Source of the DNA: Pseudomonas sp. PIC25
Lineage (GTDB): Bacteria > Pseudomonadota > Gammaproteobacteria > Pseudomonadales > Pseudomonadaceae
Assembly (NCBI RefSeq): GCF_002286785.1
Contig: NZ_MUJY01000041.1
Location: 46,710-110,709 of the forward strand
Length of the DNA stretch: 64,000 bases
Reading direction: 5' to 3'
Within the stretch, counting starts at the first letter, position 1, and the number at the start of each line of letters is the position of its first letter. Below the pieces are notes generated by a model, which saw only the letters and a list, made by a program, of their open reading frames with translations, had not been told where the DNA came from and ran no database searches. Below, one piece after another: positions 2,144 to 37,460 of the stretch. The position numbers and the translations under genes were made by a program.

Positions 2144-5100
2144 TGAATTTGCCGCCATGACATTCTTCCAGGTTTACCGCCACTACCAGCAGCAGTGTTT
2201 TGCTCAATTCCGCCATCACCAAGGCCGGAACTGTAGAGCGAATCGAACCCATCACCAAAGATAGCCCCCGGCGAGTCCAAGGTACCATCCCCCAGCTTGA
2301 AGCCACTGGCATCACACGAATTACCACCGCCACATCCAAGCATGTCGGATGTATTGAAGTATCCATCACCATTGACATCGAAAACTGTGGTATCGAGCCT
2401 TCCACCTGTTAAAACATTAAGTCCCAAAATCCAGCTTTCACCACCGGAAAGGCACGGATCGGGAAGAGGCGTGAAAGTGGAAACAAGCATGCGGTCCTTG
2501 TTCACCAGCGGCATACTGATCACTCTTTCACCTGCATTCGTGGTACCGACTCGCAAATCTAGGTACCAACCGAACTTGGTAGTCCAGTCCACACTATTCT
2601 GCGATACGATTCGGAATTCTCGACCATTACTAGTGGTTTCGGAAGAAATCGTTTGCTGAACTAACGTACTCACCAACACAGTTCCGTCATTATTTCGCCC
2701 TCGGTCCCAGATTCCATAGAGAGACTGAAGAGCAGTATTGGTTTTGTCGCCGGTTTCCAGATACTTACCTGTACCGAAAACAACCAGTCGTCCCTGAGCA
2801 GGGTGGCTGATAACACGCACCTTACCGGTGATCGGCTGCCGAACCGTGCCTTTCTTGGCCTGAAAAAGCAGTGAACCTTCCCAGTTGTTGGCATTGCTTG
2901 CTGTCAAGTCGAATTTCCAAAGATTACCCTGAATATCACCGCCATAAATGTATGTGATACGCCTGTTGGCATCCAAAAAAGCCGTAACGGCTGATAATCC
3001 ATTGTTCAATGTCTCATCGGAGTCACTGACTACGATCTTCTTGATCAAGGCGCCAGTCGTAGCATTAACAATATACAAAGCAGCCTTGCCTCTATTACTG
3101 GCATATCCGTTACCGAAAATCGCCACCCAAGTATCATTTTGAGTCCGGGCGATTGTGGGTTCGCCAAACACATAACCTAGGTCATTCCAATCCGCTTCCG
3201 AGCCACTTGTGGTATTGCTATCCGGTGCCGTGTGCTCCCAGAGTACATCTTCCGCTCCGAAACTGGCACGATCCGTCACATCGAGAGCAAACACCCCCCG
3301 ACCACCAGAGCCCAACCCGCCTGCAAGGTAAGTTTTCCATGCAGAACCGTTATAAACATCGCCTAAGCCAAAAGAGCCATCTGCATAAAACTGATGATCG
3401 TAATCAGACTCCATCAACGCGATTAGGCCTGGCGTTGCCCCAGGGCTGATTGTGCGCTTCTTGAACAAAGTAGAGGGCACATAGGCAAAGGCCTCTTCGC
3501 CTGTACTGCCATTAAAGGCATGCACCATACCATCGTTAGCCCCTACGATGACCAACGGCGTTCTATTAGCTTTGGCCGTGAGGTACTCGAAATAGCTATC
3601 CGCCGGCTCACCCGTAGCGTCAGTATTAGGGACGTTATATCCATTGTTTTGCGCACCAACAAACTTCGGATCCGAGTTGATGATGTCGCCCAATGGCAGA
3701 TTTCTCGAGCGGAGCCTAATACTTTCATAAGGCGTTCCAAGAGCTACCCCATCATTCTCACCTCTTAGCCACCCCAGTCGAAGACGAGCATTTTCCTCCG
3801 TATCGGTAACAGCACTAGTGGTCTTAAATAGGCTTTCACGCTGATCTGTGGTTAGGTTATCCCAAACCAATGAGCGACCAGACGTTCCGTTGTATGTAAA
3901 TATATTTCGAGAAGAGGCGTTTGGAATCTTACCTTGAGTAGAAGTCGTCCATGCCAAGCTACCAACATCACCGTTTTCTTCTACGTTGAAGGCCCTGACC
4001 TCGCCCGTCCAATCCGCGCTATTAAAGCGGGCCTGATAAATCAGGGTATCTTCCTGAATGCGGGTAGAGTTCGCAGTGATCGCTGATGCAGAGCTGGTTT
4101 GCTCTCGAATAGATTGCAAAGCTGAGTTCATAGCTGCAGCCAAGCTATCAGCATCATTGGCAGTATAATATGAACCATGCCCATACTCGGCTGCATCACT
4201 CAGCATCTGATTGGACTCAGCAAAACCAACTGTAAAGGTCTGTAGATTTTGCTTAACGAAGCCGAGGGAATTATAGCTTTTACCCGCCAAATCGTTTCCA
4301 CTTTTCATCATGTCGATGTCATAAGAAAACTTAGCAATATCATCTAGATATAGAGTATACCCTTCATCCTCTTCCGTAACTCCTTGCGGCTGATAACCAT
4401 CCGAATATTTTGGCGAGGGTGTAAGGCTCGCTGTCGCAGGTGCGAGGCCATCCCAGTTAGGCAGGGATGCAGACGTATCCGCCACATCGTCCGGGTCGTT
4501 AGAAGGGAATGTAGTGTCATAAGTGGGCAAGCCATCCGTTATCACAATTCCAAAATTCTTCTGACAACGATACTGAATTGGGCTGGTGTAAGTACCAGTT
4601 TGCCCACTGCCTTTGGACAGGCCTCTAAAATAGCGACTAACCTCATAATAGGCCTCAGCCAATGGAGTGGAAGTATTGGGGGTTAATGCATCGATTTTTG
4701 TATTCAGCGTACTTTGAGTAGAACCAACAGCGGCCTCCAACTCACCACCAGTTTTCCCAATAAAACTAAAAAGCCCGAAACGCATAGAAGAATTATTAGC
4801 GATTACGTTTTTAGCAACGGACTTAGCCACACTCATGCGAAAATCTTTTGGAAACCCTTCAAGAGCTGTGAAATCAGTTCCCGTTTCGTATTTTCCTACT
4901 AGATACGCTATGTAGTTTTGAACAAACCAAGTATTCCCTCCACCAACAGGATCAGGAAACCTCAAGCATTTTGTAGAAACACCATTCAAGCGAAAACTAG
5001 AGAAGTCAGTAGCGCACCCACCTTGCTTCATGTCACTCTTCGTAATATAAGTACCACTTTCTGACGCCAAGTCCTGCCACCGACTACCATTCCAAAAATC

Positions 5101-6865: not shown

Positions 6866-7287
6866 AAGCAATTCTTCTCGCACAGTCGGGTTTCAAAGGT
6901 GAATTGCTGCGCACCTTGCCCCCCTACCTTTGATTCGTCCCATTGCACGATCACTCGTAGTGTCTGTCCACTTCGAGAGATTGCCCCAGTCCCTGCCGGC
7001 AATTGGCTGCTTAATGCAGCTTTCCACGTCCGAAGATCCTGATCGGCAATGGAAGTGCCGGTTGATGCCGCTGCGGTCAAAGATATGTCATAAGACCCTG
7101 CTAAGGCTGCGGGAGTATTAGCACGCATTCGATCAACGATGTCATAGGCAAGGAACGTTGCCTGCGATCTCACCGAAGCCGTTTGATTGACTCTCATCGC
7201 ATTCAGTTGAAGCCCGACCATCCCCAAGATGCCTATACCCAGCACCAACATGGAAATTAGTATTTCAATAAGACTGAAGCCTTTCAT
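6862..7287 (-). CDS. pilV: Type IV minor pilin PilV
   Basis: MKG followed by the FSLIEILISMLVLGIG prepilin motif. Start is uncertain (alternative GTG at 7314). Confidence 0.7.
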   Translation of the reverse strand: MKGFSLIEILISMLVLGIGILGMVGLQLNAMRVNQTASVRSQATFLAYDIVDRMRANTPAALAGSYDISLTAAASTGTSIADQDLRTWKAALSSQLPAGTGAISRSGQTLRVIVQWDESKVGGQGAQQFTFETRLCEKNCL

Positions 7288-7304
7288 GGTATTGCGACTC
7301 GGCA

Positions 7305-7802
7305 TCACTGGCACTCCTTGCGCTTGACGGTGGCGCGCCCCACCGCATTTATGGTGATGATCCGTTCATAGCGGCAGTAGCTAGTTCCTACGTTGAGACT
7401 GAAATTGGTATCCGTTCCTGCGGTGACACCGCTCAAACGACCATCAGAAGAGAAAATCACTTGGGAAGTCTGTGATGTAAGAGTATTGGAAGCAGTCCAG
7501 GCAGGGAAAAGGCGCAGCAACTCGCTATCGTCGAAAGTATTATTACCGTTCGAATCCACCCAGACTCGCCATCCCTGATGCCAGTTTCCGTTATTCAGTG
7601 CCGATACGCGAACTGCCGCACCCCGCTTGATTGCTTCACTTCGCGCCAAATTAAAAGCATTGGTGAGAAGATTCGTCTGTGTCTGGGTGCGGTTGGATCG
7701 GATCAGATCCTGAAAGCTTGGCACTGCGAACGAGAGGATGACCGCCAATACGGCAATGGTCACCATCATCTCAATGAGCGTAAAACCTCGTGAGGATTGC
7801 AT
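7305..7802 (-). CDS. fimU: Type IV minor pilin FimU (GspH-like pseudopilin)
   Basis: MQSSRG followed by the FTLIEMMVTIAVLAVIL prepilin motif, 165 aa. Confidence 0.75.
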   Translation of the reverse strand: MQSSRGFTLIEMMVTIAVLAVILSFAVPSFQDLIRSNRTQTQTNLLTNAFNLARSEAIKRGAAVRVSALNNGNWHQGWRVWVDSNGNNTFDDSELLRLFPAWTASNTLTSQTSQVIFSSDGRLSGVTAGTDTNFSLNVGTSYCRYERIITINAVGRATVKRKECQ

Positions 7803-10463: not shown

Positions 10464-13295
10464 TCAGGCATAGTGCCGGACCTCACCCTGCCCTTCGATG
10501 TTCTCGACGCAACGGCCACAGATTTCCGGATGGGCCGGGTTGACCCCGACGTCCTCGCGGTGGTGCCAGCAGCGGCCGCATTTGGCGTGCTCGGACTTGC
10601 GCACCAGCAACTTGAGTCCAGCCAGCTCGCTGGCTACCGCATTGGCCGGCGCATCGGCCAGCGGCGCCAGGGTCGCCGTCGACGTAATCAAAACGAAGCG
10701 CAATTCATTGCCCAGTTTGGCCAGATTCGTAATGAGCGACTCTTCGGCGTAGAGAGTAACCTCCGCCTGCAGGTTGCCACCGATAGCCTTGGCGGTACGC
10801 TGATTCTCCAGCTCCTTGTTCACGGCGGCCTTGACTTCCATCACGCGCGCCCAGAAATCTCGGCCCAGCTCTGCATCGCTCGGCAGCGAGCCAAGCCCCT
10901 GGTACCAAGTATTCAGCATCACCGACTCGTTACGCTTGCCTGGCAGATACTGCCAGATTTCCTCGGCAGTGAACGCCAGGATCGGCGCGATCCAACGCAC
11001 CAGCGCCTCGGCGATATGGAACAGGGCCGTCTGGCAGGAGCGCCGGGCGACGCTGTCGGCCGCCGTGGTGTATTGACGGTCCTTGATGATGTCGAGATAG
11101 AAGCCGCCCAACTCCTGAACGCAGAAGTTATGGACCTTCTGATAGACGTTCCAGAAACGGTAGCTACCGTAGGCCTCTTCGATCTCGCTCTGGAGCAACG
11201 CCGCACGGTCCACGGCCCAGCGGTCCAACGCCAGCATGTCATTGGCCGCGAGTAAATCCTTGGCCGGGTCGAAGCCGTTCAGGTTGGCCAACAGGAAACG
11301 CGCGGTATTACGGATACGCCGGTAGGCATCCGCACTGCGCTGCAGAATTTGCTGGGAAACCGCCATTTCGCCGGAGTAATCGGTTGCCGAGACCCACAGG
11401 CGCAGGATGTCCGCCCCCAGGCTATCGGTGACTTGTTGCGGGGCGATCACGTTGCCCAGCGACTTGGACATCTTGCGGCCGTTCTCATCCACGGTGAAAC
11501 CGTGGGTCAGCAACGCCTTGTACGGAGGATGCCCGTCGATGGCGCAGCCGGTCAGCAATGAGGAATGGAACCATCCGCGATGTTGGTCGGAGCCTTCGAG
11601 GTAAAGGTCGGCACGCGGCCCCTGAGCATGACCGAGCGGGTGCGAACCACGCAGTACATGCCAATGCGTGGTGCCCGAATCGAACCAGACATCCAGGGTG
11701 TCGCTGATCTTGTCGTATTGCGCAGCCTCATCACCGAGCAACTCGGCGGCGTCGAGTTTGAACCAGGCTTCGATACCCTCTTTCTCGACACGTTGGGCTA
11801 CCGCCTCCATCAGCTCCGGCGTGCGCGGATGCAGTTCGCCGCTGGCCTTATGCAGGAAGAAGGGGATCGGCACCCCCCAGTTGCGCTGACGCGAGATACA
11901 CCAGTCCGGACGGCCGGCAATCATGCCCTGCAGACGCGCCTGGCCCCAGGAAGGAACGAACTCGGTCTGCTCGATGCCGGCCAATGCACGCTGACGCAGG
12001 GTATCGCCCTGGTTCGGCTGCTTGTCCATGCCGACGAACCACTGCGCCGTTGCGCGATAGATCAGCGGAGTCTTGTGGCGCCAGCAGTGCATATAGCTGT
12101 GGCTGATGCTTTCGTGTTTCAGCAGGCAACCGACCTCGGCGAGCTTCTCGACGATCTGCGGGTTGGCCTTCCAGATGAACTGCCCGCCGAAGAACGGCAG
12201 GGAATCGACATAGACACCGTTGCTCTGCACCGGATTGAGGATGTCGTCGTTATGCATCCCATAGCGCTTGCAGGTGACGAAGTCGTCCTCGCCATAGGCC
12301 GGCGCCGAGTGAACGATCCCCGTACCGGCATCCAGCGCCACGTATTCGGCCAGGTAAACCGGTGACAGACGCTCGTAGAGCGGATGACGGAAGTTCAGAT
12401 TCTCCAGGCGCTCGCCCTTGGTCGTGGCGACGACCTGCCCCTCGAGGCCATAGCGTTTCAGGCTGGCCTCGACCAGCTCAGCCGCCAGCACCAACAACTT
12501 GTCGCCGATGTCCACCAGGGCATAGTCGAATTCGGGGTGCGCATTTAGCGCCTGGTTAGCCGGGATGGTCCAGGGTGTGGTGGTCCAGATCACGATGCAG
12601 GCGGGCTTGCCCAGGGAGTCGAGCCCGAATGCCTCTGCCAGAGCCTTGTCGTCGGCACTTGGGAACGCCACGTCGATGGCATCGGACTTCTTGTCCTGAT
12701 ATTCGACCTCGGCTTCCGCCAGTGCGGAACCGCAGTCGAAACACCAGTTGACCGGCTTCAAACCTTTGAACACGAACCCTTGCTTGACCATCTCAGCCAG
12801 CGCGCGGATTTCCCCCGCCTCGTTGGCGAAATCCATGGTCTTGTATGGATTATCCCAGTCGCCGAGCACACCGAGACGAATGAAGTCGGCCTTCTGCCCT
12901 TCGATCTGCTCGGTCGCGTAGGCACGGCAAAGTTCGCGGGTCTTGTCGGCGGGCAGGTGCTTGCCGTGGGTGGTTTCCACCTTGTGCTCAATGGGTAGGC
13001 CATGGCAGTCCCAACCCGGCACGTAGGGTGCATCGTAACCGGCCAGAGTCTTCGAACGGACAATGATGTCCTTGAGAATCTTGTTGACCGCATGACCGAT
13101 GTGAATATTACCGTTGGCATACGGCGGGCCGTCGTGCAGGACGAACTTCGGGCGCCCCTCGCCGATCTGCCGCAGCTTCCGGTACAGGTCAATGCTGCTC
13201 CAGCGCTGCAGCATCTCCGGCTCGCGCTGGGGCAGGCCGGCCTTCATCGGAAACGCCGTTTCCGGCAGGTTGAGGGTCGCTTTGTAGTCGGTCAT
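10464..13295 (-). CDS. ileS: Isoleucyl-tRNA synthetase
   Basis: HIGH motif ([11 protein letters not shown]), KMSKS motif, and a C-terminal zinc finger (CGRCWHH...CGRC). The true start [13 protein letters not shown] is at 13295; the track ORF is extended to 1133 aa by GC-rich open frame. Confidence 0.95.
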
Positions 13296-21728: not shown

Positions 21729-21857
21729 CCGAGCAAACGGCGCAAGGAAGCGCCAGGGCAGCCGTCGCCCGGGAGCCGGCTGCATGACGGGGGCAACGAC
21801 GCTCTCGCGCCGGCCCTCGAGCGGAAACGGACTACCGTTCGAGGGCCACCCTTCGAA

Positions 21858-29158: not shown

Positions 29159-30778
29159 TCAGCCCTCAGGATGCGAAACCACGGCGCCCCACTCCAGCCC
29201 GAACCGCGCCAGGTACTTGCGCAACCGGTCGGCGTCGTTGGGATTGGCCTTGCCTTGGCGCGACACAGCGAACAGCCGCCGACCGGCATCCGACAGGCTG
29301 CGCGCCTCGCGGCAAACGCCGATCACGGACTCCAGTTGCAGCCGGTCGAAGAGGTCCAGCCCAGCCAGTGTCTCGTCGCCCAGTAACGCACGCAGCGGGG
29401 TCGCGTCGGGTCCATCGCTTTGCCAGGCGCGCCGCAACCGTTGCAGTTCCTCCTCCACCAGTGTTTCGTCGATCCGGCCGCTGTCGGCCAACGTCGCCAT
29501 TCGCGTGACGGAGGCCGACAGTTCGCGGAAATTGCCGGCCCAGCGCGCCTCCGCCGAAGTGGCGAACGCCAGGTAGCGGCGCCGCGCCTCGACGTTGAAA
29601 CGCACCTGCCGACCCAGCTCGCGAGCATGCCGTTCCAGCTCGAAATCGATGTTCGGCTCGATGTCCTCGCGCCGCCCGGCGAGACCGGGCAGCTCGAACG
29701 TCCATAGATTGATACGGGCAAACAGGTCCTCGCGGAACAGCCCGTCCGTCACCCGACCGCGCAGGTCTCGGTGCGTGCCGGCGATCAGGAGGAAGTCGCT
29801 TTCCACCTCCCGGTCGCTGCCCAACGGGAAGAAGCGCCGTTCCTCGATGGCCTTGAGCAGCATGGCTTGCTCGTCCAGGCCCAGTTCGCCGATCTCGTCG
29901 AGAAACAGCATGCCGCCGTCGGCCGCCCGCAACAGGCCATCGCGCGCATTCTGCGCTCCGGTGAAAGCACCTTTGACATGGCCGAACAACGCGGACATGG
30001 CACCATCGCCGCGCAAGGTCGCGCAGTTCACTTCGACGAAGCGGCCTTGGATCTGATGCCGTGCACGCTTCAGCTCGTAGATTCGCCGTGCCAGGAACGA
30101 CTTGCCCGCCCCCGTGGGCCCCACCAGCAGCATGGGCGCCCTGGAGCGAATGGCGACCCGCTCGATCTGCTCGACGGAACGGTTGAACGCCGCGTTGCGC
30201 GTGGCGATACCCGACTTGAGAAAGGCCAGCGTCTCTTGGCGCTCGCGGCGAAAACGCGAGGCGATGCGGTCGTAGCGCGACAGGTCGAGATCGATCAGGG
30301 TGTGGATGCCACTGGCCTTCCGCTCGGTATCCAGGCGCCGGGCCGGTGACGTCTGGACCAGCCGCGCAGGCAGATAACGCGCCTCGGTGAGCAGAAACCA
30401 GCAAATCTGCGCCACATGGGTCCCGGTGGTGATGTGCACCAGATAATCCTCATGCTCGGTATCGAAGGCGTAGCCCGAGGTGAAGTCGTGCAGAGCCCCG
30501 TAGACCTCTTCGAAATCCCAAGGATCGCGCAGTTGCATCGCATGCAGACGCACCTCGGTTTCCGGCGATACCTGGGCGATGTCATCGCGGATGCGCTCGG
30601 CCAGCCCCCGGTCGCGGGCATCCTCGCAGTGGATCAGCTCCAGGCGATGGATCAGCAGGTCGGGCTGCTGGCATAAGCCGACCGTGGGGCGCCATTTTCT
30701 CCAGCGTTCCGCGCCCTTGCCCACCCGGTCGAGAGTCGTTCCGAGAAAGCCGATGGCCACGGTTTGCCTTTCCGTCAT
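29159..30778 (-). CDS. rtcR: Sigma-54-dependent transcriptional regulator RtcR (N-terminal CARF-like sensor, AAA+ domain, HTH)
   Basis: Walker A (GPTGAGKS), the GAFTGA motif and a C-terminal HTH, 539 aa. Divergent from the rtcB operon. Confidence 0.9.
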   Translation of the reverse strand: MTERQTVAIGFLGTTLDRVGKGAERWRKWRPTVGLCQQPDLLIHRLELIHCEDARDRGLAERIRDDIAQVSPETEVRLHAMQLRDPWDFEEVYGALHDFTSGYAFDTEHEDYLVHITTGTHVAQICWFLLTEARYLPARLVQTSPARRLDTERKASGIHTLIDLDLSRYDRIASRFRRERQETLAFLKSGIATRNAAFNRSVEQIERVAIRSRAPMLLVGPTGAGKSFLARRIYELKRARHQIQGRFVEVNCATLRGDGAMSALFGHVKGAFTGAQNARDGLLRAADGGMLFLDEIGELGLDEQAMLLKAIEERRFFPLGSDREVESDFLLIAGTHRDLRGRVTDGLFREDLFARINLWTFELPGLAGRREDIEPNIDFELERHARELGRQVRFNVEARRRYLAFATSAEARWAGNFRELSASVTRMATLADSGRIDETLVEEELQRLRRAWQSDGPDATPLRALLGDETLAGLDLFDRLQLESVIGVCREARSLSDAGRRLFAVSRQGKANPNDADRLRKYLARFGLEWGAVVSHPEG

Positions 30779-30780
30779 AG

Positions 30781-30840
30781 CGATACCTAAAGATAAATAG
30801 CGATACAAAAATATAGCGTTTATCGTCATTCTCGATACAG
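30781..30840. promoter_or_regulatory. AT-rich upstream region with CGATAC repeats; candidate RtcR/IHF upstream activating region
   Basis: CGATAC at 30781, 30801 and 30833, plus an inverted TATCG at 30821. The tract is about 35% GC in a roughly 65% GC genome. Confidence 0.3.
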
Positions 30841-30926
30841 CCGGATTACTTCCATCTCGCCTCACCCAGAAATAATTTCTTTAATTTCAAATAGATAAGA
30901 AATAAAGCGAAGCGACAGAGCACTCC

Positions 30927-30942
30927 TGGCACGCCACTCGCT
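30927..30942 (+). promoter_or_regulatory. Sigma-54 (RpoN) promoter of the rtc operon
   Basis: TGGCAC-gccac-TCGCT, close to the consensus TGGCAC-N5-TTGCW. Sits downstream of the AT-rich region and points towards rtcB. Confidence 0.65.
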
Positions 30943-31058
30943 ATATCCCTTCCGACCGCATCGCCATGCAGGCCGACGGGCCGGGAGTTCCTCCCGCCGG
31001 TGCGCGGGCCCACCCTGGTGTTGGCGCCGCGTATGCCGCCGCAGCAATGATCGGTCGA

Positions 31059-31127
31059 TGCCTGGTGGCTCAGTCGGTAGAGCAGTCGCCCGAGGCGGCC
31101 GTCGCAGGTTCGAGTCCTGCCCAGGCC
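31059..31127 (+). ncRNA. tRNA-like RNA module 1 (acceptor-like stem, canonical D-arm and T-arm, anticodon arm replaced by a 6-bp triloop hairpin)
   Basis: D-arm GCTCAGTCGGTAGAGC and T-arm GCAGGTTCGAGTCCTGC are present. A 6-bp acceptor pairing TGCCTGG/CCAGGCC flanks them. The hairpin GTCGCC-CGA-GGCGGC sits where the anticodon arm would be. Confidence 0.55.
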
Positions 31128-31196
31128 TTCGATAGCTCAGTCGGGTAGAGCAGCCCTCGCAGAGGGCCTGTCGCGGGTTCGAGTCCCGCTCGAATA
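31126..31196 (+). ncRNA. tRNA-like RNA module 2, directly abutting module 1
   Basis: U8-A9 junction, D-arm GCTCAGTCGGGTAGAGC, T-arm GCGGGTTCGAGTCCCGC and a 5-bp acceptor pairing TTCGA/TCGAA. A GCCCTC-GCA-GAGGGC triloop hairpin replaces the anticodon arm. Confidence 0.55.
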
Positions 31197-31427
31197 CCTG
31201 CCCTTCCAAGGCAGTTCACACATGAGCAGTACCCGCTGGCGTGGCAAAGGGAAGGACCCGATGCCACCGCCGATCCGCCCGGCACCGAAGCCGCGCGACG
31301 GGCAGGACACGCATTGCAGCCGCAGGACGCGGCGCCGGATCAGGATGATCGCGATGCGGGCCGCCCCGACGTGCCGCGATGGACGCCCGGCGGATCGGCG
31401 AACGCCAGCACTGAAAGGAGAAGAAGA

Positions 31428-32573
31428 ATGAAAATGCTGAAGCGCTTTGTAGTGAAGAAGAACGAACGCGGCCTGTTGTTTTCCGAGGGCGACTTCCAGT
31501 CCGTCCTGGAGCCTGGCCTGTACCTGCGCTTCGACCCGTTCAACCGGCTGGCGGTAGAAACCTGCAGCCTCAATGCCCCGTTGTTCGAGCACCGCATCGC
31601 CGGTTACCTGCGCAAGAACGAGCCCGCCCTGATCGAGCGCCACTTCGCGCGCATGGATCTGGGCGAGCACGAAGCCGGCCTGCGCTACGAAGACGATGTA
31701 CTGGTGGAAATTCTTGCGCCGGGCGCCCGTCGTCTGTACTGGAAAGGCCAAGCCGACCAACGCCTGGAGCGCATCGGCCTGCGCCACGGCTACCGGCTGG
31801 ATGCGGCGCTGGTCTCTGTGCTGACCCAACCCAGCCTGCGTAGCCAGGGCCTGGTGGGCCTCGACGCGATACTACTGGTGCAGGTACCGGCGTTCCAGGT
31901 CGGCGTGCTCAAGGTCAACGGCGATGTGGCAGAGCTGCTCCCGTCCGGTCAGTACGGCTTCTGGCGCTTCAACCGGCAGATCGGCGTGGAATTGGTGGAT
32001 ACACGGCTCCAGACACTGGAAGTCGGCGGCCAGGAAATCCTCACCCGCGACAAAGTCAGCCTGCGCCTGAACTTGGCCGCCAACTGGCGCTACAGCGATG
32101 TGCTGCTGGCTCATGCACGACTGGCGAAGCCGCAGGAACACCTGTATCGCGAGCTGCAGTTCGGTCTGCGTGCAGCGGTGGGTACCCGGACGCTCGACGA
32201 ATTGCTGGAGAACAAACAGATCATCGACGAGACCGTGAGTGCTCACCTTGCTCGCAAACTGGCGGATACCGGCCTGGAAGTCAGCAGCCTCGGCGTGCGT
32301 GACATCATCCTGCCCGGCGAGATGAAGGCCCTGCTGGCCCAGGTGGTGGAAGCCGAGAAAGCGGCCCAGGCCAACGTGATCCGCCGGCGCGAGGAAACCT
32401 CGGCGACCCGTTCGCTGCTGAACACCGCCAAGGTGATGGAAGAAAACCCGACGGCACTGCGCCTGAAGGAACTGGAAACTCTCGAGCGGGTAGCCGAGCG
32501 GATCGACCGGATTTCCGTTTTCGGCGGCCTGGACCAGGTGCTGAACGGTCTGGTGAATATCGCACCGCGCTGA
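31428..32573 (+). CDS. SPFH/band-7 (stomatin-prohibitin-flotillin-HflK/C) domain protein with no obvious TM segment
   Basis: AAGGAG RBS. The C-terminal half is a clear SPFH domain (LARKLADTGLEVSSLGVRDIILPGEMKALLAQVVEAEKAAQANVIRRREE). Confidence 0.8.
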   Translation: MKMLKRFVVKKNERGLLFSEGDFQSVLEPGLYLRFDPFNRLAVETCSLNAPLFEHRIAGYLRKNEPALIERHFARMDLGEHEAGLRYEDDVLVEILAPGARRLYWKGQADQRLERIGLRHGYRLDAALVSVLTQPSLRSQGLVGLDAILLVQVPAFQVGVLKVNGDVAELLPSGQYGFWRFNRQIGVELVDTRLQTLEVGGQEILTRDKVSLRLNLAANWRYSDVLLAHARLAKPQEHLYRELQFGLRAAVGTRTLDELLENKQIIDETVSAHLARKLADTGLEVSSLGVRDIILPGEMKALLAQVVEAEKAAQANVIRRREETSATRSLLNTAKVMEENPTALRLKELETLERVAERIDRISVFGGLDQVLNGLVNIAPR

Positions 32574-32659
32574 TCAAAGTCTGTAAGGAGCGACGCCATC
32601 CGCTCACCCGAACATCCGACGGGCTGGTCGATCCAGACCGCGCAAAGAAGGACATGAAC

Positions 32660-33880
32660 ATGAAAGAACACAGCTACCAACTGCTGGAAGTCGCCAACGG
32701 CAAGCCGATCAAGCTTTGGACCCAGGGTGTACCGGTGGAAGAGGACGCCAAGCAGCAACTGACCAACACCGCGAAGATGCCGTTCATCTTCAGTCACCTG
32801 GCAGTCATGCCGGACGTACACCTGGGCAAGGGATCGACCATCGGCAGCGTGATTCCCACCGTCGGTGCGATCATTCCGGCCGCCGTCGGCGTGGACATCG
32901 GTTGCGGCATGATCGCCGCGCGCACCTCGCTGGTGGCCGCCGACCTGCCGGACAACCTGCACGGCCTGCGCAGCGCCATCGAGAAAGCCGTACCCCACGG
33001 CAAGACCTTCGGCAAGCGCGACCAGGGCGCCTGGGCCAATGTGCCGGACCAGGCCGATCACGCCTGGAAGGCCCTGGCCGGCCGCTTCAAGGCGATCACC
33101 GACAAGTACCCGAAGCTGGAGAAAACCAACAACCGTAACCACCTGGGAACCCTGGGCACCGGCAACCACTTCATCGAGGTCTGCCTGGACGAGGCGCAGC
33201 GCGTCTGGGTCATGCTGCACAGCGGTTCGCGCGGTGTGGGTAACGCCATCGGCAACACCTTCATCGAACTGGCCCAGGCCGACATGCGCCAGCACATCGC
33301 CAACCTGCCGGACCGCGACCTCGCCTACTTCGAAGAAGGCAGCAAGCACTTCGACGACTACGTGGAAGCGGTCGGCTGGGCGCAGGACTTCGCCAAGCAG
33401 AACCGAGCCTTGATGATGCATGCGGTGATCGAGGCGGCGCGCAAGGTCATCGGCAAGCCGTTCGAGGCCAACCTGGAAGCGGTGAACTGTCACCACAACT
33501 ACGTGCAGAAGGAGCGCCACTTCGGCCAGGAGGTCCTGGTGACCCGCAAGGGCGCGGTGTCGGCGCAGAAGGGCGAGCTGGGCATCATCCCCGGCTCCAT
33601 GGGAGCCAAGAGCTACATCGTGCGCGGCCTCGGCAACGAGGAGGCGTTCTGCTCCTGCAGCCACGGCGCCGGCCGGACCATGAGCCGGACCAAGGCGAAG
33701 AAGCAGTTCACCGTGGAAGACCAGATCCGCGCCACCGCTCACGTCGAATGCCGCAAGGACAAGGACGTGATCGACGAAATCCCGATGGCTTACAAGGACA
33801 TCGACGCGGTGATGGAGGCCCAGCGCGAGCTGGTGGAAGTGGTGCACACCCTGCGGCAAGTGGTGTGTGTGAAGGGATAG
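32660..33880 (+). CDS. rtcB: RNA-splicing ligase RtcB
   Basis: PFIFSHLAVMPDVHLGKGSTIGSV, the metal-ligand histidines and a C-terminal HGAGR motif. ATG at 32660 (alternative 32654). Confidence 0.95.
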   Translation: MKEHSYQLLEVANGKPIKLWTQGVPVEEDAKQQLTNTAKMPFIFSHLAVMPDVHLGKGSTIGSVIPTVGAIIPAAVGVDIGCGMIAARTSLVAADLPDNLHGLRSAIEKAVPHGKTFGKRDQGAWANVPDQADHAWKALAGRFKAITDKYPKLEKTNNRNHLGTLGTGNHFIEVCLDEAQRVWVMLHSGSRGVGNAIGNTFIELAQADMRQHIANLPDRDLAYFEEGSKHFDDYVEAVGWAQDFAKQNRALMMHAVIEAARKVIGKPFEANLEAVNCHHNYVQKERHFGQEVLVTRKGAVSAQKGELGIIPGSMGAKSYIVRGLGNEEAFCSCSHGAGRTMSRTKAKKQFTVEDQIRATAHVECRKDKDVIDEIPMAYKDIDAVMEAQRELVEVVHTLRQVVCVKG

Positions 33881-33884
33881 GCAA

Positions 33885-35228
33885 ATGACGAATCCAAAGG
33901 ACTGGCTGGAGCGGCTGAAAAGCCGCCCCGCCACGGGCAACTACTGGCAAGACTATCGCCAGCGTGAAGCCGTGGCGGTTCTGGAGGCCAATGAAAACAA
34001 TGGCGACTGGGTCGCCCTGAGCGCCTATGGGAACGGTTTCGTACGTGAAGCGGCCGTGCGCAGGCTGCTCGAAAGCCCCTCGCCGCAGGCCCTGGCGGCA
34101 CTGTTGGAGCGCCTCAATGACTGGGTTCCACAGGTTCGTGAGCTAGCCATTGAAGGCGTACGGCCGTATCTGGTGCAGACACAGGCGGAAGCGCTGCTGT
34201 ACGCCCTGAAACCCTTGATGGCCTTGGCCAAGCGCCAGCGTACCGATCACGCCCCGATCCTGGCGGCAGCCCGTGCCGCGCTGCTAGCGCCGGAGGTGCG
34301 CGTCACCCTGGAGAACGCCTGGCGGGACTCGCGTGGCTCGGAAGCACGCTTTTTGTTCGAATTGCTAGTGGAAGATCTCGAACACCGCCCGCAATTGCTT
34401 CGATGTGCCGTGTCCCACGCTGATATGAGCGTACGACGGATGGCCGTTCAGACCTGTGGCGAACTGCCGGCCGAGCAAGCCGTGCCACCTCTGGTCCGAG
34501 CGCTGGAGACACCCGGCGCCAGTGTACGCGTCATGGCCTTGCGCGCCCTACTGGGCCACTCCACCGAGCCGCACCCCTATCTGCAAAAGGCTCTGCTGGA
34601 TGCATCCACAGCCGTGCGCGCTCTGGCGCTCTGGGCGGCACCGCGCTGGAACCTGGATCCCCGCTCAGTGCTACGCGAACGCCTGCGACTGGCGCCACCA
34701 CAGACCAAGCGAGCTTGGCTCGGCATACTCGGCCTGGCGCATGACCTGAAAGAGACGCTGGATGAAGCCTGGCTAACTGCAGCCCAAAACGCCGGCCCGG
34801 CAGCCGTACGTCTGGCTTCGCTCGAGTGGCAGGCGGATAACATCCCAATGCTGGTCACGGCACTGAACGACGGCTCGAAAAGAGTCTTTCTGCGAGCAAC
34901 GGAACTGCTGCGAAAACAATCTTGGGCGGAAGTGCAAACATCGCTGGACGAACGGCTGGTCGAGGCCATGGACAGCGGTCGCCGGGATGCCCTGGTTCGC
35001 CTGAGACCGGGCTGGCAGCAACTCGCCTACCTGTTGCGCCGTCTGGATGCCGCTTCTCCGGAGGAGCGTGCAAGCACGCTGGAGCGTTTGAGCGACTGGT
35101 GCCTGGGGCAGTATCTGATCGTTGATCCGATGACACCGAAACCCCAACGCGATGCCCTACTTGCACGTGTCAGGGAGTTGGAAATGAGCGGCACCCTGCC
35201 TACCGGTTGCACCGAACGACTGAAGTAA
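33885..35228 (+). CDS. HEAT/PBS-lyase-like repeat protein (447 aa) between rtcB and rtcA
   Basis: Repeated Ala/Leu/Arg-rich helical units (AVRRLLESPSPQALAALLERLNDWVPQVRELAIEG; MSVRRMAVQTCGELPAEQAVPPLVRALETPGASVRVMALRALLGH). Coupled to the next gene through a TAA-AGGAGAG-ATG junction. Confidence 0.7.
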   Translation: MTNPKDWLERLKSRPATGNYWQDYRQREAVAVLEANENNGDWVALSAYGNGFVREAAVRRLLESPSPQALAALLERLNDWVPQVRELAIEGVRPYLVQTQAEALLYALKPLMALAKRQRTDHAPILAAARAALLAPEVRVTLENAWRDSRGSEARFLFELLVEDLEHRPQLLRCAVSHADMSVRRMAVQTCGELPAEQAVPPLVRALETPGASVRVMALRALLGHSTEPHPYLQKALLDASTAVRALALWAAPRWNLDPRSVLRERLRLAPPQTKRAWLGILGLAHDLKETLDEAWLTAAQNAGPAAVRLASLEWQADNIPMLVTALNDGSKRVFLRATELLRKQSWAEVQTSLDERLVEAMDSGRRDALVRLRPGWQQLAYLLRRLDAASPEERASTLERLSDWCLGQYLIVDPMTPKPQRDALLARVRELEMSGTLPTGCTERLK

Positions 35229-35238
35229 GGAGAGACCT

Positions 35239-35856
35239 ATGCTAGTCGTCACGGAACAAGCACGCAGCGAAGCGCTGCGCGTACGGATGGATGCAAGCGG
35301 TTGTGTATTCCAGTTCGTCGTGCTCGCCCTCGAGGGCGACGCGACAGTGGACGAGACCCTGCACCGCCAGGCTCTGTGGGCCATGCACGAACAGTTGATG
35401 GCCGAATTGCACGCCTGGCACCGACAACTCGTGGCGAACCCTGCCTACGTCAACCAGCCGGCCCCGAGCATCGACTGGCACCCGGAGCGCGCCCTTGCGC
35501 GCCGACTGGCTGATGATGAAGTCGCTGGCCTGAGACGGACCGAGCAGCCCTTCTATCGTGCCTTTCGCAAACCGCCCTACGACACGCGGTTCCTGGGTGG
35601 GGAGGCCGAAGCCCAGGCCTTGTTCCATGAATGGCTGGACCTGCTCGGGCTTGTGGATGGCGAGCAACCGGAAGTCATCGACTGGACTTCGAACCTGTCC
35701 GCCGACGGGACAAGCGAGGCCCTCGATGCCGCATCAAGCGAACCCTGGAGCGACTATTTCGATGCAGGCCTGGAGTGGTGGGGTGTTTGGTGCCTGACCA
35801 TCTGGAATCCACAGCGCAGAACCCTGAGCGTCGTGGGAGCCAGTACGACCGACTGA
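35239..35856 (+). CDS. Hypothetical protein (205 aa), acidic C-terminus
   Basis: Strong AAGGAGAG RBS 5 nt upstream of the ATG. No recognisable motif. Confidence 0.6.
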   Translation: MLVVTEQARSEALRVRMDASGCVFQFVVLALEGDATVDETLHRQALWAMHEQLMAELHAWHRQLVANPAYVNQPAPSIDWHPERALARRLADDEVAGLRRTEQPFYRAFRKPPYDTRFLGGEAEAQALFHEWLDLLGLVDGEQPEVIDWTSNLSADGTSEALDAASSEPWSDYFDAGLEWWGVWCLTIWNPQRRTLSVVGASTTD

Positions 35857-35906
35857 TGGAAGCCACCTGATGCATCAAGAACAAACGATTTGGATTGGAC
35901 GAGGAA

Positions 35907-36023
35907 ATGAATAAGGAAGAACGACATCCACTCCCCGCCCCGATGCGGGCACGGGTGCTGGAAGAACTGGCGCGCCTGGAACGCATCGAGCGGCAACTGG
36001 CCCATTCGGGAGAACAACCATGA
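35907..36023 (+). CDS. Possible 38-aa upstream ORF overlapping the rtcA start (ATGA)
   Basis: Encodes [38 protein letters not shown]. The stop overlaps the rtcA ATG. The RBS is poor. Confidence 0.2.
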
Positions 36024-37043
36024 TGGGCGACTACCTGGAAATCGACGGTTCCATCGGCGGCGGCCAGATCCTGCGCAGCGCCTTGAGCCTGTCGATGGTC
36101 AGCGGGCGGCCGTTCCGCATCCACAATATCCGCTCCGGTCGCAGCCGGCCCGGCCTGCTGCGCCAGCATCTCACCGCCGTGCTGGCAGCAGCGGAGGTGT
36201 GTGGAGCGGAGGTGGCAGGCGCCCAGCTCGGCTCGCAGACGCTGGACTTCCAGCCCGGCGAGATTCAGGCAGGCGACTATCGCTTCAATATCGGTAGCGC
36301 CGGAAGCGCCACCCTGGTGTTGCAGACGTTGTTCCCGGCGCTGCTGGACGGGCCGGCGGCCAGCCGGGTACGCATCTTCGGCGGTACCCATAACCCGGCC
36401 GCGCCACCGGCCGATTTCATCGAGCGCAGTTGGTTGCCGCTGTTACGCCGGATGGGCGCTCAGGTGGACTTCCGCCTGCTGCGCCATGGCTTCGCGCCAG
36501 CGGGTGGCGGTGAGATCGAGTGCGAGGTGGTGCCGGCCCGGGACGCCGCTGCATCTCGAAGCACGCGGCGAAGTACTGGAGCAGCGTGCCCTAGCCCTGA
36601 TCGGCAATCTGCCCGGCCATATCGCCGAGCGTGAGCTGCAACGGGTAGCGCGCCGACTGCGCTGGCCGCAAGAGCAGTTGCACCAGCGCGCGGTGGCGAG
36701 CGCCGGGCCGGGCAATATCCTCCTGCTGGAGATCGCCTGCACCGATGTCTGCGAGCTGTTCAGCGCCATCGCCCAGACCGGCGTCCGTGCCGAGCGGGTG
36801 GCCGACCAGGCCATCGACGAAGCCCGCGCCTGGCTGCTCAGCGAAGCCGCGGTGGGCGAGCACCTGGCCGATCAGTTGCTGCTGCCCCTGGCGCTCGCCG
36901 GTGGCGGCAGTTTCACCACGCACCGGAGCAGCGCGCATCTGGAGAGCAACATCCAAGTCATCCGTCAGTTCCTGCAGACGGATATCCGCGTGGAGCCGTT
37001 GAGCGATGCCCGGCTGCGGGTGACGATCGGTAGCAGCGCTTGA
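36020..37043 (+). pseudogene. rtcA: RNA 3'-terminal phosphate cyclase RtcA with an apparent +1 frameshift at 36533-36542
   Basis: The N-terminal part (36020-36538) carries [14 protein letters not shown] and [12 protein letters not shown]. The C-terminal part (36537-37043) carries RGEVL...HIAERE...AAVGEHLADQLLLPLALAGG in the other frame. The switch falls in CCGGCCCGGG. Conceptual length is 340 aa. Confidence 0.75.
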
Positions 37044-37103
37044 CGAATTTCTCACATTCGCTGACCTAGAGTACGCGGTATCCCGTCTCCCGGACGATGC
37101 CGC

Positions 37104-37460
37104 ATGCCACGCTTGTTTTTCTCCCTGGTCCCCCTTCTCGCCCTGCTCGGCGGATGCCAGTCCTACCATGACTACCTACTTGCCCAAGGCTATCCGCCCG
37201 CGTACGCCGACGGCTTCCAGGACGGTTGCGGCAGCGGCAAGCAGGCCGTGGAGGGCATCGGCCGTTTCCGCAAGGATGTGCCGCGCTACCTGCGCGACCC
37301 GCTCTACGCGGAAGGCTGGGGCGATGCGTTCCACCAGTGCCAGACGGAAGCCGAAGCGGCCGAACGGCGCACCTATCTGGAACAGCGGAGCGAACGCGAC
37401 GAAGCGTGGGAGGAGCACGAACGCAACGCCTTCGCCCACGCGCTTACCGGGAGGAGGTAA
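37104..37460 (+). CDS. Putative lipoprotein (118 aa)
   Basis: Signal peptide ending LLALLGGC (lipobox-like). Confidence 0.5.
   Translation: MPRLFFSLVPLLALLGGCQSYHDYLLAQGYPPAYADGFQDGCGSGKQAVEGIGRFRKDVPRYLRDPLYAEGWGDAFHQCQTEAEAAERRTYLEQRSERDEAWEEHERNAFAHALTGRR

Follow-up and report, generated by a model that had tools for sequence, protein, structure and literature searches.

An RtcR/sigma-54-controlled RNA-repair operon of the Pseudomonas indica group with accessory modules, partly decayed in strain PIC25

We find that the locus described here is an RtcR/sigma-54-controlled RNA-repair operon of Pseudomonas sp. PIC25, a member of the P. indica group; it has gathered accessory modules and, in this strain, has partly decayed. 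Directly behind rtcB it encodes a HEAT-repeat protein and a 205-amino-acid protein (p205), and we tentatively propose that p205 is a non-catalytic partner of RtcB, with the HEAT protein as an optional adaptor. What bacterial RtcB does is a matter of continuing debate, and we know of no protein partner of the Rtc-type enzyme; a widespread, unnamed family encoded right behind rtcB is a concrete candidate for one.

Layout and decay of the operon

All coordinates are positions in the window, the 64,000-nt stretch of Pseudomonas sp. PIC25 DNA that was analysed. The features are as follows.

29159-30865, minus strand: rtcR, sigma-54 enhancer-binding activator with a CARF-like RtcR domain (Pfam RtcR 1.5e-86, Sigma54_activat 1.5e-48)
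30927-30942, plus strand: predicted sigma-54 type promoter element TGGCAC-N5-TCGCT, read from the sequence
31058-31130 and 31126-31198, plus strand: two tandem tRNA-like elements in the leader (ARAGORN; Rfam tRNA)
31428-32573, plus strand: SPFH gene, 381 aa (Band_7 2.7e-29)
32654-33880, plus strand: rtcB, 3'-phosphate/5'-OH RNA ligase gene, full length (Pfam RtcB 1.1e-132)
33885-35228, plus strand: HEAT gene, 447 aa (HEAT_2 1.6e-11)
35239-35856, plus strand: p205 gene, 205 aa, acidic, RtcB-linked family, predicted Maf1-like fold
35907-36023, plus strand: relic of rlaP, an RNA 3'-nucleotidyltransferase gene, 38 codons, an in-frame deletion derivative whose stop overlaps the rtcA ATG
36020-37043, plus strand: rtcA, frameshifted, two ORFs matching NCBIfam NF003246

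The true start of rtcR is likely the ATG at 30778, and rtcR orthologues are present in all rtc-type loci. The HEAT ATG lies 4 nt from the RtcB stop, and the junction between the HEAT and p205 genes reads, from the HEAT stop, TAA-GGAGAGACCT-ATG. Neither a sigma-70-like promoter nor a plus-strand terminator-like site was found in 30800-37300, and from this and the close gene spacing we infer that the operon is co-transcribed. Of the marks of an RtcR-regulated rtcBA operon, the divergent RtcR and the sigma-54 promoter element are present and RtcB is intact (profile positions 1-426 of 426 covered), but RtcA is not. The gene order given in the first-pass annotation is real and conserved in related genomes, except that its "uORF" before rtcA is a relic of rlaP and that rtcA is frameshifted.

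Both changes were traced by comparison with P. indica, the nearest relative, which keeps an intact 268-aa RlaP. An in-frame deletion of 690 bp relative to P. indica (L006 12101-12801, replaced by 11 nt in the window) removed the RlaP core. The 38-codon ORF left behind, first taken for a small upstream ORF, joins residues 1-26 of RlaP to its last 8 through four residues of new sequence; over the first 26 codons it shares 96% identity with the N-terminus of P. indica RlaP, and it lacks the Pol-beta type catalytic core (RlaP nucleotidyltransferase, PF10127). The rtcA gene, which the first-pass annotation lists simply as RtcA, is split over two frames (ORFs 36020-36634 and 36201-37043), 2 bp having been lost between 36541 and 36542 (GCCCGG--GACGCC versus GCCCGGTTGACGCC in P. 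indica). [quoted passage not shown] Read from one assembly, the disruption of rtcA is either a pseudogene or an assembly error; a search of the contig index with the exact p205 sequence, made for an independent assembly of the strain, returned no gene record. The 3' end of the operon is decaying in this strain, while purifying selection acts on the SPFH, RtcB, HEAT and p205 genes, all of them intact (dN/dS 0.11 for SPFH versus P. indica, 0.07 for rtcB, and 0.26 and 0.41 for the HEAT and p205 pair). From the decay of rlaP and rtcA it can be seen which parts of the operon a natural strain can do without.

Across relatives (79 species-level genome loci and 80 metagenome loci) the operon has a slot structure: rtcR comes first; the next slot holds Ro60 plus YrlA, SPFH plus two tRNA-like RNAs, or no module at all; RtcB follows, then optional HEAT, p205 and RlaP, and finally RtcA. 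The module that alternates with Ro60 and YrlA is SPFH with its tRNA-like pair, not HEAT. Relatives' operons with Ro60 carry YrlA RNAs (Rfam RF02553, 71-83 bits). The tandem tRNA-like pair, with varying or abnormal anticodon loops, was seen in 5/5 SPFH-type relatives scanned and in none of the scanned Ro60-type or plain operons; in the window its first element scores 44.5 bits against Rfam tRNA. The SPFH protein has a Band_7 domain (match to residues 152-323) followed by a coiled coil, as in the SPFH/stomatin family, and stomatin chains match its residues 190-376 at 5e-18. A hydrophobicity scan bore out the earlier description of the protein as lacking a transmembrane segment: there is no membrane anchor and no hydrophobic segment outside the SPFH domain, the most hydrophobic window, residues 142-161, being the first beta segment of that domain. 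The P. aeruginosa SPFH protein PaFlo8 is encoded in the rtc locus (PMC13086221), and the protein of the window is its soluble, stomatin-like counterpart; in it, tRNA-like RNAs may have a second type of partner.

The HEAT and p205 families

The p205 protein is acidic (pI 4.6) and has no match in Pfam, NCBIfam, PADLOC or PHROG. It was originally described as having no recognisable domain, which holds for these databases but not for its predicted fold (see below). Its family comprises at least 614 clusters, with no Pfam model and no name, although both it and the HEAT family may already be contained in the RNA-repair neighbourhood survey of Burroughs & Aravind 2016. Among 124 diverse members W149 and D205 are invariant, and P112, P113, F174, G177, W180, W181, G182, A201, S202 and T204 are at least 90% conserved. 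The protein shows an invariant aromatic/glycine motif, a conserved C-terminus, A-S-x-T-D-COOH, with an invariant final Asp, and no catalytic signature. The persistence of invariant residues across these members suggests that p205 has a conserved partner. No relatives were found in viral contigs. The idea that p205 is a divergent RlaP was rejected, since P. protegens and numerous other genomes carry both.

In 42/60 informative metagenomic loci p205 lies downstream of rtcB, with or without HEAT (22 across a gap of 13-212 nt, 15 with HEAT in between and 5 with some other insert); the other 18 have no rtcB nearby. Adjacency with tight spacing recurs where RtcB is 69-90% identical to that of the window, including loci at only 69-71% (L089, L127-L135, L144-L146), and most deep branches of the p205 tree have the gene next to rtcB. 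For HEAT, 31/79 species-level genome loci have the gene behind rtcB, 18 of these 31 with p205 directly after it, whereas 48/79 have no rtcB nearby. These counts agree with the expectation of the first-pass annotation that the accessory genes are kept next to rtcB. The insertion point of HEAT and p205 is always directly after rtcB. The two genes adjoin in both orders (HEAT first in Pseudomonas, p205 first in the distant locus L140), which fits the earlier suggestion that they act together. p205 can do without HEAT: many operons have rtcB followed directly by p205, and among nearly identical p205 genes some have HEAT beside them and others do not. Extra co-oriented ORFs in rtc operons were already recorded by Das & Shuman 2013 (PMC3854526), and such operons gather inserts of many kinds; L140, for instance, holds an MBL-fold gene and two zf_Tbcl genes.

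The HEAT protein is basic (pI 8.9) and consists of tandem helical hairpin repeats fitting HEAT models (a HEAT/PBS-lyase-type alpha-solenoid). Its structural matches are generic solenoids and scaffolds only, and PADLOC and PHROGs gave nothing useful for it or for p205. In agreement with the first reading it has no vWA/MIDAS domain, and no TROVE domain either. The likeness to Ro60 drawn at that stage did not survive: only HEAT-type Pfam matches were obtained, and a true Ro60 (TROVE plus vWA_Ro60) is a separate gene that shares the operon with HEAT, along with YrlA, in most relatives. A bilin lyase was likewise set aside as improbable (NCBIfam CpcE and NblB matches well under their cut-offs, 20.7 bits against 330); pseudomonads, to our knowledge, lack phycobiliproteins, and the database name "PBS lyase" is therefore probably a mere label. 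HEAT is present or absent between close relatives and often stands alone. Orphan HEAT genes have no conserved neighbours, only antisense shadow ORFs and assorted genes, and hmmsearch found no p205-like gene beside them; by sequence reading, several of their neighbours resemble a LysR-type regulator, an amino-acid permease and a thioesterase.

Structural searches assigned neither protein to an unrelated housekeeping role; such an assignment had been named beforehand as evidence against an accessory module. The p205 model has a predicted Maf1-like fold, alpha/beta with a central antiparallel sheet flanked by helices as in Maf1 (PDB 3nr5, 6tut, 5u4z), and Maf1 was its only significant structural match, found by two independent programs. 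Maf1, a repressor of RNA polymerase III, is known to us from eukaryotes alone. Unlike Maf1, p205 is bacterial and RtcB-linked, is not known to be tied to a polymerase, and has its own invariant C-terminal A-S-x-T-D. Sequence comparisons did not join the two families: Pfam Maf1 (PF09174) had no match in p205 or the 124 family members at E up to 1, the p205 family HMM matched no Maf1 chain among PDB sequences, and hhalign gave P 0.011-0.019 and a probability of 2.5-3.7%, not significant, with Maf1 alignments of 3 and 22 sequences (a shallow profile, as the last large search returned plant Maf1 only). The weak hhalign alignment nevertheless pairs S-D-x-F, G-x-x-W and [YW]-N, the top conserved motifs of both families. 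The Maf1 signature boxes (PDYDFS; WSxxYFFYNKKxKR) correspond only partially, PDYDFS at best loosely to F-x-x-P-P-Y-G. We regard it as rather doubtful that the RtcB-linked p205 family is a bacterial homologue of Maf1. If it is, the eukaryotic repressor of tRNA synthesis would go back to a bacterial binding module that served in the response to RNA damage, and p205 would also be the first partner protein dedicated to RtcB of the bacterial Rtc type. The predicted fold ties a bacterial RNA-damage operon to a eukaryotic regulator of tRNA synthesis and offers a lead on the origin of Maf1.

A candidate partner of RtcB

The fold comparisons point to binding modules rather than enzymes, because Maf1 is the sole strong match of p205 and the HEAT protein matches scaffolds only. 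Within an RNA-repair operon, p205 is then a candidate non-catalytic partner of RtcB and HEAT an optional adaptor, a reading that we prefer while holding it to be somewhat short of an even chance. RNA damage would activate RtcR, so that HEAT and p205 are made together with RtcB; p205 would contact RtcB or the RtcB-RNA complex, most likely as a cofactor or regulator, its invariant acidic C-terminal tail being a candidate to reach into a conserved site of the partner; and HEAT might bind p205 and/or RNA. The two proteins could thereby help RtcB to find, hold or seal broken tRNA or rRNA. This reading is favoured by the recurrent rtcB-p205 adjacency and the mostly rtcB-adjacent deep branches, by the occurrence of HEAT and p205 side by side in both orders, by the complementary charges of the two proteins, and by their preservation under purifying selection although rlaP and rtcA have decayed. 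It is weakened by the p205 (18/60) and HEAT (48/79) loci that lack a nearby rtcB, by dN/dS values of 0.26-0.41, high for a housekeeping cofactor, by the fact that the rtc operons of E. coli and P. aeruginosa work without either protein, and by one p205 clade in Rhs toxin loci, where immunity genes lie.

This last clade suggests that p205, and perhaps HEAT, could instead be immunity-like neutralisers that bind RNA-cleaving toxins (Rhs, CDI, T6SS or colicin-type) and do not act on RtcB, in which case the operon would pair nuclease blocking with RNA repair. In thirteen loci (L093-L103, L108, L154) p205 has an Rhs protein encoded upstream of it (RHS_repeat 5.3e-55), and all share one putative C-terminal toxin domain. 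RtcB is viewed as a counter-measure against RNase toxins in pseudomonads (PMC11888443), catalogues of polymorphic toxin systems include Imm-HEAT proteins (PMC3482391), p205 resembles known RNase inhibitors in its small size and acidity, many orphan copies of both genes sit in variable contexts, and their dN/dS exceeds that of rtcB. However, the Rhs-linked genes form one derived clade nested within rtc-linked ones, most of the family being linked to rtcB. Moreover, p205 is the second gene after the toxin: in the 9 of the 13 loci that could be resolved, a same-strand ORF of about 120 aa occupies the canonical immunity position (neither it nor the toxin domain has a Pfam or PDB sequence match). 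Immunity families also rarely retain invariant motifs and a C-terminus over hundreds of clusters, and no PADLOC or Pfam Imm model matches. We therefore judge immunity unlikely, though a serious contender.

That HEAT and p205 are passenger cassettes in a permissive operon, with no share in RNA repair, would accord with the gain or loss of HEAT in near-identical p205 backgrounds (L123 versus L124), the orphan copies, the visible decay in this strain and the accumulation of inserts as in L140. It is improbable given the constant insertion point, the tightly spaced rtcB-p205 adjacency over RtcB identities of 69-90% and the purifying selection on both genes. Least probable is that p205 is a true Maf1 homologue that binds RNA polymerase and curbs tRNA and rRNA synthesis during repair, because, despite the structural match in two programs, the paired motifs at equivalent positions, an order of secondary-structure elements that presumably fits Maf1 topology and a shared tie to tRNA homeostasis under stress, the profile comparisons (hhalign, Pfam Maf1 and family HMM) lend no support, bacteria lack Pol III and in genomes p205 is tied to RtcB rather than to transcription genes.

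Comparison with known systems

Like the rtcR-(rsr-yrlBA)-rtcBA operon of Salmonella and E. coli, the locus groups RtcB and RtcA in one unit and has a divergent RtcR and a sigma-54 type promoter, and Ro60 with YrlA RNAs, as in Salmonella, occurs in the window's relatives. Unlike that operon, the window has SPFH and two tRNA-like RNAs in the upstream slot, HEAT and p205 after rtcB, a deleted rlaP and a frameshifted rtcA. The rtc locus of P. aeruginosa and P. fluorescens has an RlaP gene between rtcB and rtcA (PMC12776372); the window shares with it the SPFH gene before rtcB and keeps the start and end of rlaP, but differs from the P. aeruginosa locus as published (PMC13086221, PMC12776372) in carrying HEAT and p205 and in an RlaP cut to 38 codons. 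As their slot-like layout shows, rtc operons gather interchangeable RNA-binding and protein-binding modules, and any of HEAT, p205 and RlaP may be present or absent. Some immunity proteins of polymorphic (Rhs/CDI) toxin systems have HEAT repeats, as the HEAT protein does, and one p205 clade lies downstream of Rhs toxins; unlike immunity genes, orphan HEAT genes have no toxin neighbour, and p205 is not first after the toxin and is unusually conserved.

In other lineages RtcB uses a separately encoded acidic cofactor, Archease. Like this RtcB cofactor of archaea and eukaryotes, p205 is small, acidic and encoded next to rtcB; it has no Archease fold or sequence, and its role would be analogous, not shared by ancestry. 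Archease is described as not encoded by all RtcB-encoding organisms (PMC4604427), and p205 could fill its role in bacteria that lack it.

Anatomy of the rtc operon

The rtc locus in the window comprises the following features.

Features of the rtc locus (window coordinates)
29159-30865, minus strand: rtcR (Pfam RtcR 1.5e-86, Sigma54_activat 1.5e-48)
30927-30942, plus strand: predicted sigma-54-type element, TGGCAC-N5-TCGCT, read from the sequence
31058-31130, plus strand: tRNA-like element 1 (ARAGORN; Rfam tRNA 44.5 bits)
31126-31198, plus strand: tRNA-like element 2, overlapping element 1 (ARAGORN)
31428-32573, plus strand: SPFH protein, 381 aa (Band_7 2.7e-29)
32654-33880, plus strand: RtcB, full length (1.1e-132)
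33885-35228, plus strand: HEAT-repeat protein, 447 aa (HEAT_2 1.6e-11)
35239-35856, plus strand: p205, 205 aa (unmatched in Pfam, NCBIfam, PADLOC and PHROGs)
35907-36023, plus strand: 38-codon ORF, rlaP relic (comparison with P. indica locus L006)
from 36020, plus strand: rtcA, in two frames (NCBIfam NF003246)

The expanded gene order described by the first-pass annotation is real, since the gene junctions are short (4 nt between RtcB and HEAT, 10 nt between HEAT and p205) and a scan of the window revealed no sigma-70-like promoter or plus-strand terminator-like site inside the rtc unit. The same gene order, at 94-95% nucleotide identity, is found in P. indica NBRC 103045 (locus L006), the closest relative. 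As judged from this comparison, the genes for SPFH, RtcB, HEAT and p205 are intact and under purifying selection (dN/dS 0.11, 0.07, 0.26 and 0.41, respectively). p205 matches a Pseudomonas sp. PIC25 protein at 100% identity. Elsewhere in the window, 21734-21852 scores as the small RNA RsmW in Rfam (52.8 bits, gathering score 52), which fits a Pseudomonas origin.

The SPFH protein, the counterpart of P. aeruginosa PaFlo8, had been described as lacking a transmembrane segment, and the hydrophobicity of its sequence indeed revealed no membrane anchor. Residues 190-376 are stomatin-like (5e-18 to stomatin chains), and the first ~35 residues (FVVKKNERGLLFSEGDFQSVLEPGLYLRF) look like the usual start of a Band_7 domain. 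Residues 1-150 (window 31428-31880) gave no family match; the Band_7-like start hints at a degenerate duplicated segment. Deletion of PaFlo8 has caused no phenotype in assays reported so far (PMC13086221).

The 38-codon ORF had been read as a possible uORF of rtcA, but alignment to P. indica identifies it as a relic of rlaP rather than a regulatory ORF. A recent study showed that RlaP, a nucleotidyltransferase, extends RNA 3′ ends by one or two nucleotides (PMC12776372). The P. indica locus carries intact RlaP (268 aa) and RtcA (341 aa), and 11 nt in the window stand for its positions 12101-12801, an in-frame loss of 690 bp. The remnant codes for the first 26 residues of RlaP, four new ones and its final eight, and it ends at the original stop, which continues to overlap the rtcA ATG; it is the retained ends and the preserved stop that mark the ORF as a gene relic. 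The rtcA gene itself is without two bases between 36541 and 36542 (GCCCGG--GACGCC in the window, GCCCGGTTGACGCC in P. indica), and its halves, matching profile positions 3-177 and 176-335 of NF003246 (RNA 3′-terminal phosphate cyclase), lie in different frames. Putting the two bases back in silico gave a full-length protein. Since the site lies outside any homopolymer run, this deletion, seen in a single assembly, is likely a real mutation rather than a sequencing error. RtcR activation in E. coli reportedly requires RtcA as well as RtcB (PMC9650030); given this requirement, induction of the window's operon might differ.

Variable slots across relatives

We scanned one genome per species for HEAT and found a relative encoded in 302 genomes; 80 loci were kept, and their layout was determined by tblastn of all operon proteins. 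By gene content the rtc operon is modular: rtcR is followed by Ro60, SPFH or nothing, then by RtcB and HEAT, variably by p205 and RlaP, and by RtcA. The accessory genes are, as the annotation's view of an rtc-associated module implied, kept beside rtcB in relatives, with HEAT directly 3′ of rtcB in 31 of 79 loci and p205 next after HEAT in 18 of these 31.

Operons of the Ro60 type carry YrlA Y RNAs (Rfam RF02553, 71-83 bits), likewise present in the Salmonella rtc operon. Between rtcR and the SPFH gene, the window and 5/5 SPFH-type operons scanned have a tandem tRNA-like pair; its anticodon loops vary, and some are abnormal. No such pair was found in the Ro60-type or plain operons scanned.

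Positions of the tandem tRNA-like pair
window: 31058-31198
L006 (P. indica): 7174-7314
L066: 6754-6895
L069: 6796-6937
L073: 7157-7297
L074: 6759-6902

This restriction of the pair to SPFH-type and of YrlA to Ro60-type operons suggests that SPFH with the tRNA-like RNAs, and not HEAT, is the unit that alternates with Ro60 and YrlA. The HEAT protein had been loosely likened to the Ro60 ring, a likeness that fails, because domain searches found neither a TROVE nor a vWA domain in it and a true Ro60 is encoded alongside it in most relatives. The protein is basic (pI 8.9), 92% identical to its P. indica counterpart, and confidently modelled by AlphaFold as all helical (pLDDT 91.8).

In 48 of the 79 loci HEAT is an orphan lying more than 10 kb from any rtc gene, and we found no neighbour shared among these copies. 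Neighbour joining places the rtc-linked copies at the base of the tree and groups the orphans into three derived clades, one large and two small. Since HEAT accompanies one of two near-identical p205 genes (L123) but not the other (L124), we take it to be an optional cassette, quickly gained and lost. One orphan, in Stutzerimonas stutzeri DSM 10701 (L005, 1-15317), has hypothetical genes around it and large DEAD/UvrD-type helicase genes on the flanks; the region is possibly a variable or defence island. Directly downstream of a distant RtcB-HEAT-RtcA locus (L002), on the opposite strand, is a Tai4/Tae4 T6SS immunity-effector pair (3408-4270).

Linkage and predicted fold of p205

A metagenome scan gave 60 p205 loci whose upstream sequence was long enough for a call. 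In 22 of them rtcB is directly 5′ of p205 (gaps of 13-212 nt), in 15 the order is rtcB-HEAT-p205, in 5 a different insert of 0.6-1.3 kb separates the two genes, and 18 are without rtcB. Read from gene order, the linkage of p205 to rtcB is independent of HEAT. The pair also occurs where RtcB is only 69-71% identical to that of the window, for example in L089 (rtcR, a 269-aa ORF at 3945-4754, RtcB, p205, RtcA). A 278-aa ORF follows p205 in L086 (6678-7514) and L087; neither ORF has a Pfam match. A distant locus, L140 (3700-12600), is expanded further, to Ro60, a 267-aa ORF, RtcB, a treble-clef zinc-finger protein (zf_Tbcl), p205, a 457-aa HEAT, a second zf_Tbcl protein, an MBL-fold protein with a weak tRNase Z-like match, RlaP and RtcA. 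HEAT and p205 thus adjoin in both orders.

A word-indexed search with p205 returned 77 relatives, mainly from Pseudomonas; the family profile, run exhaustively in HMMER, picked up at least 614 clusters at E<=0.001 (239 at E<=1e-10). Among the matches listed, most are of 170-270 residues and nearly all end in A-S-x-T-D. Across 124 diverse members, none of which matched a shared Pfam family, W149 and the terminal Asp are invariant, and conservation is 90% or more at P112, P113, F174, G177, W180, W181, G182, A201, S202 and T204.

The first reading of p205 as a protein with no recognisable domain stands as far as domain databases go, but not for its predicted fold. AlphaFold models the protein with confidence (pLDDT 88.6, pTM 0.86), and in an independent Foldseek search seven Maf1 chains came top (human Maf1 E 3.4e-3, prob 0.99), every non-Maf1 match having E>1. 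The family HMM gave no match to Maf1, and hhalign of the two was weak (P 0.011-0.019, probability 2.5-3.7%), although its alignment is topologically sensible and sets the best-conserved residues of the two families against each other.

Positions paired by hhalign
p205 S171-D-x-F174 with Maf1 S127-D-x-F130
p205 G177-x-x-W180 with Maf1 G134-x-x-W137
p205 W189-N190 with Maf1 Y144-N145

The structural match lacks significant sequence support, and we therefore speak of a predicted Maf1-like fold and claim no homology.

Possible roles of p205 and HEAT

We found no catalytic signature in HEAT or p205, and the two, one basic and the other acidic, look like binding modules. The recurrent tight rtcB-p205 adjacency, together with the conserved motif and C-terminal Asp, are the strongest signals pointing to a conserved partner of p205, for which RtcB or an RtcB-RNA complex is the obvious candidate. 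Given this adjacency and the deep conservation, we tentatively favour, at somewhat below even odds, the view that p205 is a non-enzymatic partner of RtcB, acting as its cofactor or regulator, and that HEAT is an optional adaptor.

The main rival, that p205 and HEAT block toxins as immunity proteins do, we consider unlikely. It would account for 13 orphan p205 genes on metagenome contigs (L093-L103, L108, L154) located 3′ of a gene for an Rhs protein (RHS_repeat 5.3e-55), and it is in keeping with the many orphan copies, the raised dN/dS and the known Imm-HEAT proteins (PMC3482391). All 13 loci have one C-terminal toxin domain of ~190 aa in common; in 9 of them, however, a ~120-aa ORF is detectable between the toxin gene and p205, which does not directly follow the toxin. 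Neither the domain nor this ORF has a Pfam or PDB sequence match. The Rhs-linked genes, moreover, form a single derived clade nested inside the rtc-linked p205 genes of Pseudomonas, and p205 is unusually conserved for an immunity protein. That HEAT and p205 are purely hitch-hiking is more improbable still, because the adjacency recurs and both are under purifying selection. Least probable, by a clear step, is that p205, for all its predicted fold, acts on RNA polymerase as Maf1 does.

Extra co-oriented ORFs in rtc operons were already noted in 2013 (PMC3854526), RlaP (PMC12776372) and the SPFH gene (PMC13086221) of rtc loci have been described, and Ro60/YrlA is a known component. The literature searched gave neither an account of the HEAT and p205 families as members of rtc operons, which an earlier survey may mention, nor any bacterial protein said to fold like Maf1; both are apparently new, and the p205 family is the part of the locus most worth following up. 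As a putative partner of RtcB, p205 would resemble Archease in role only, the two folds being unrelated.
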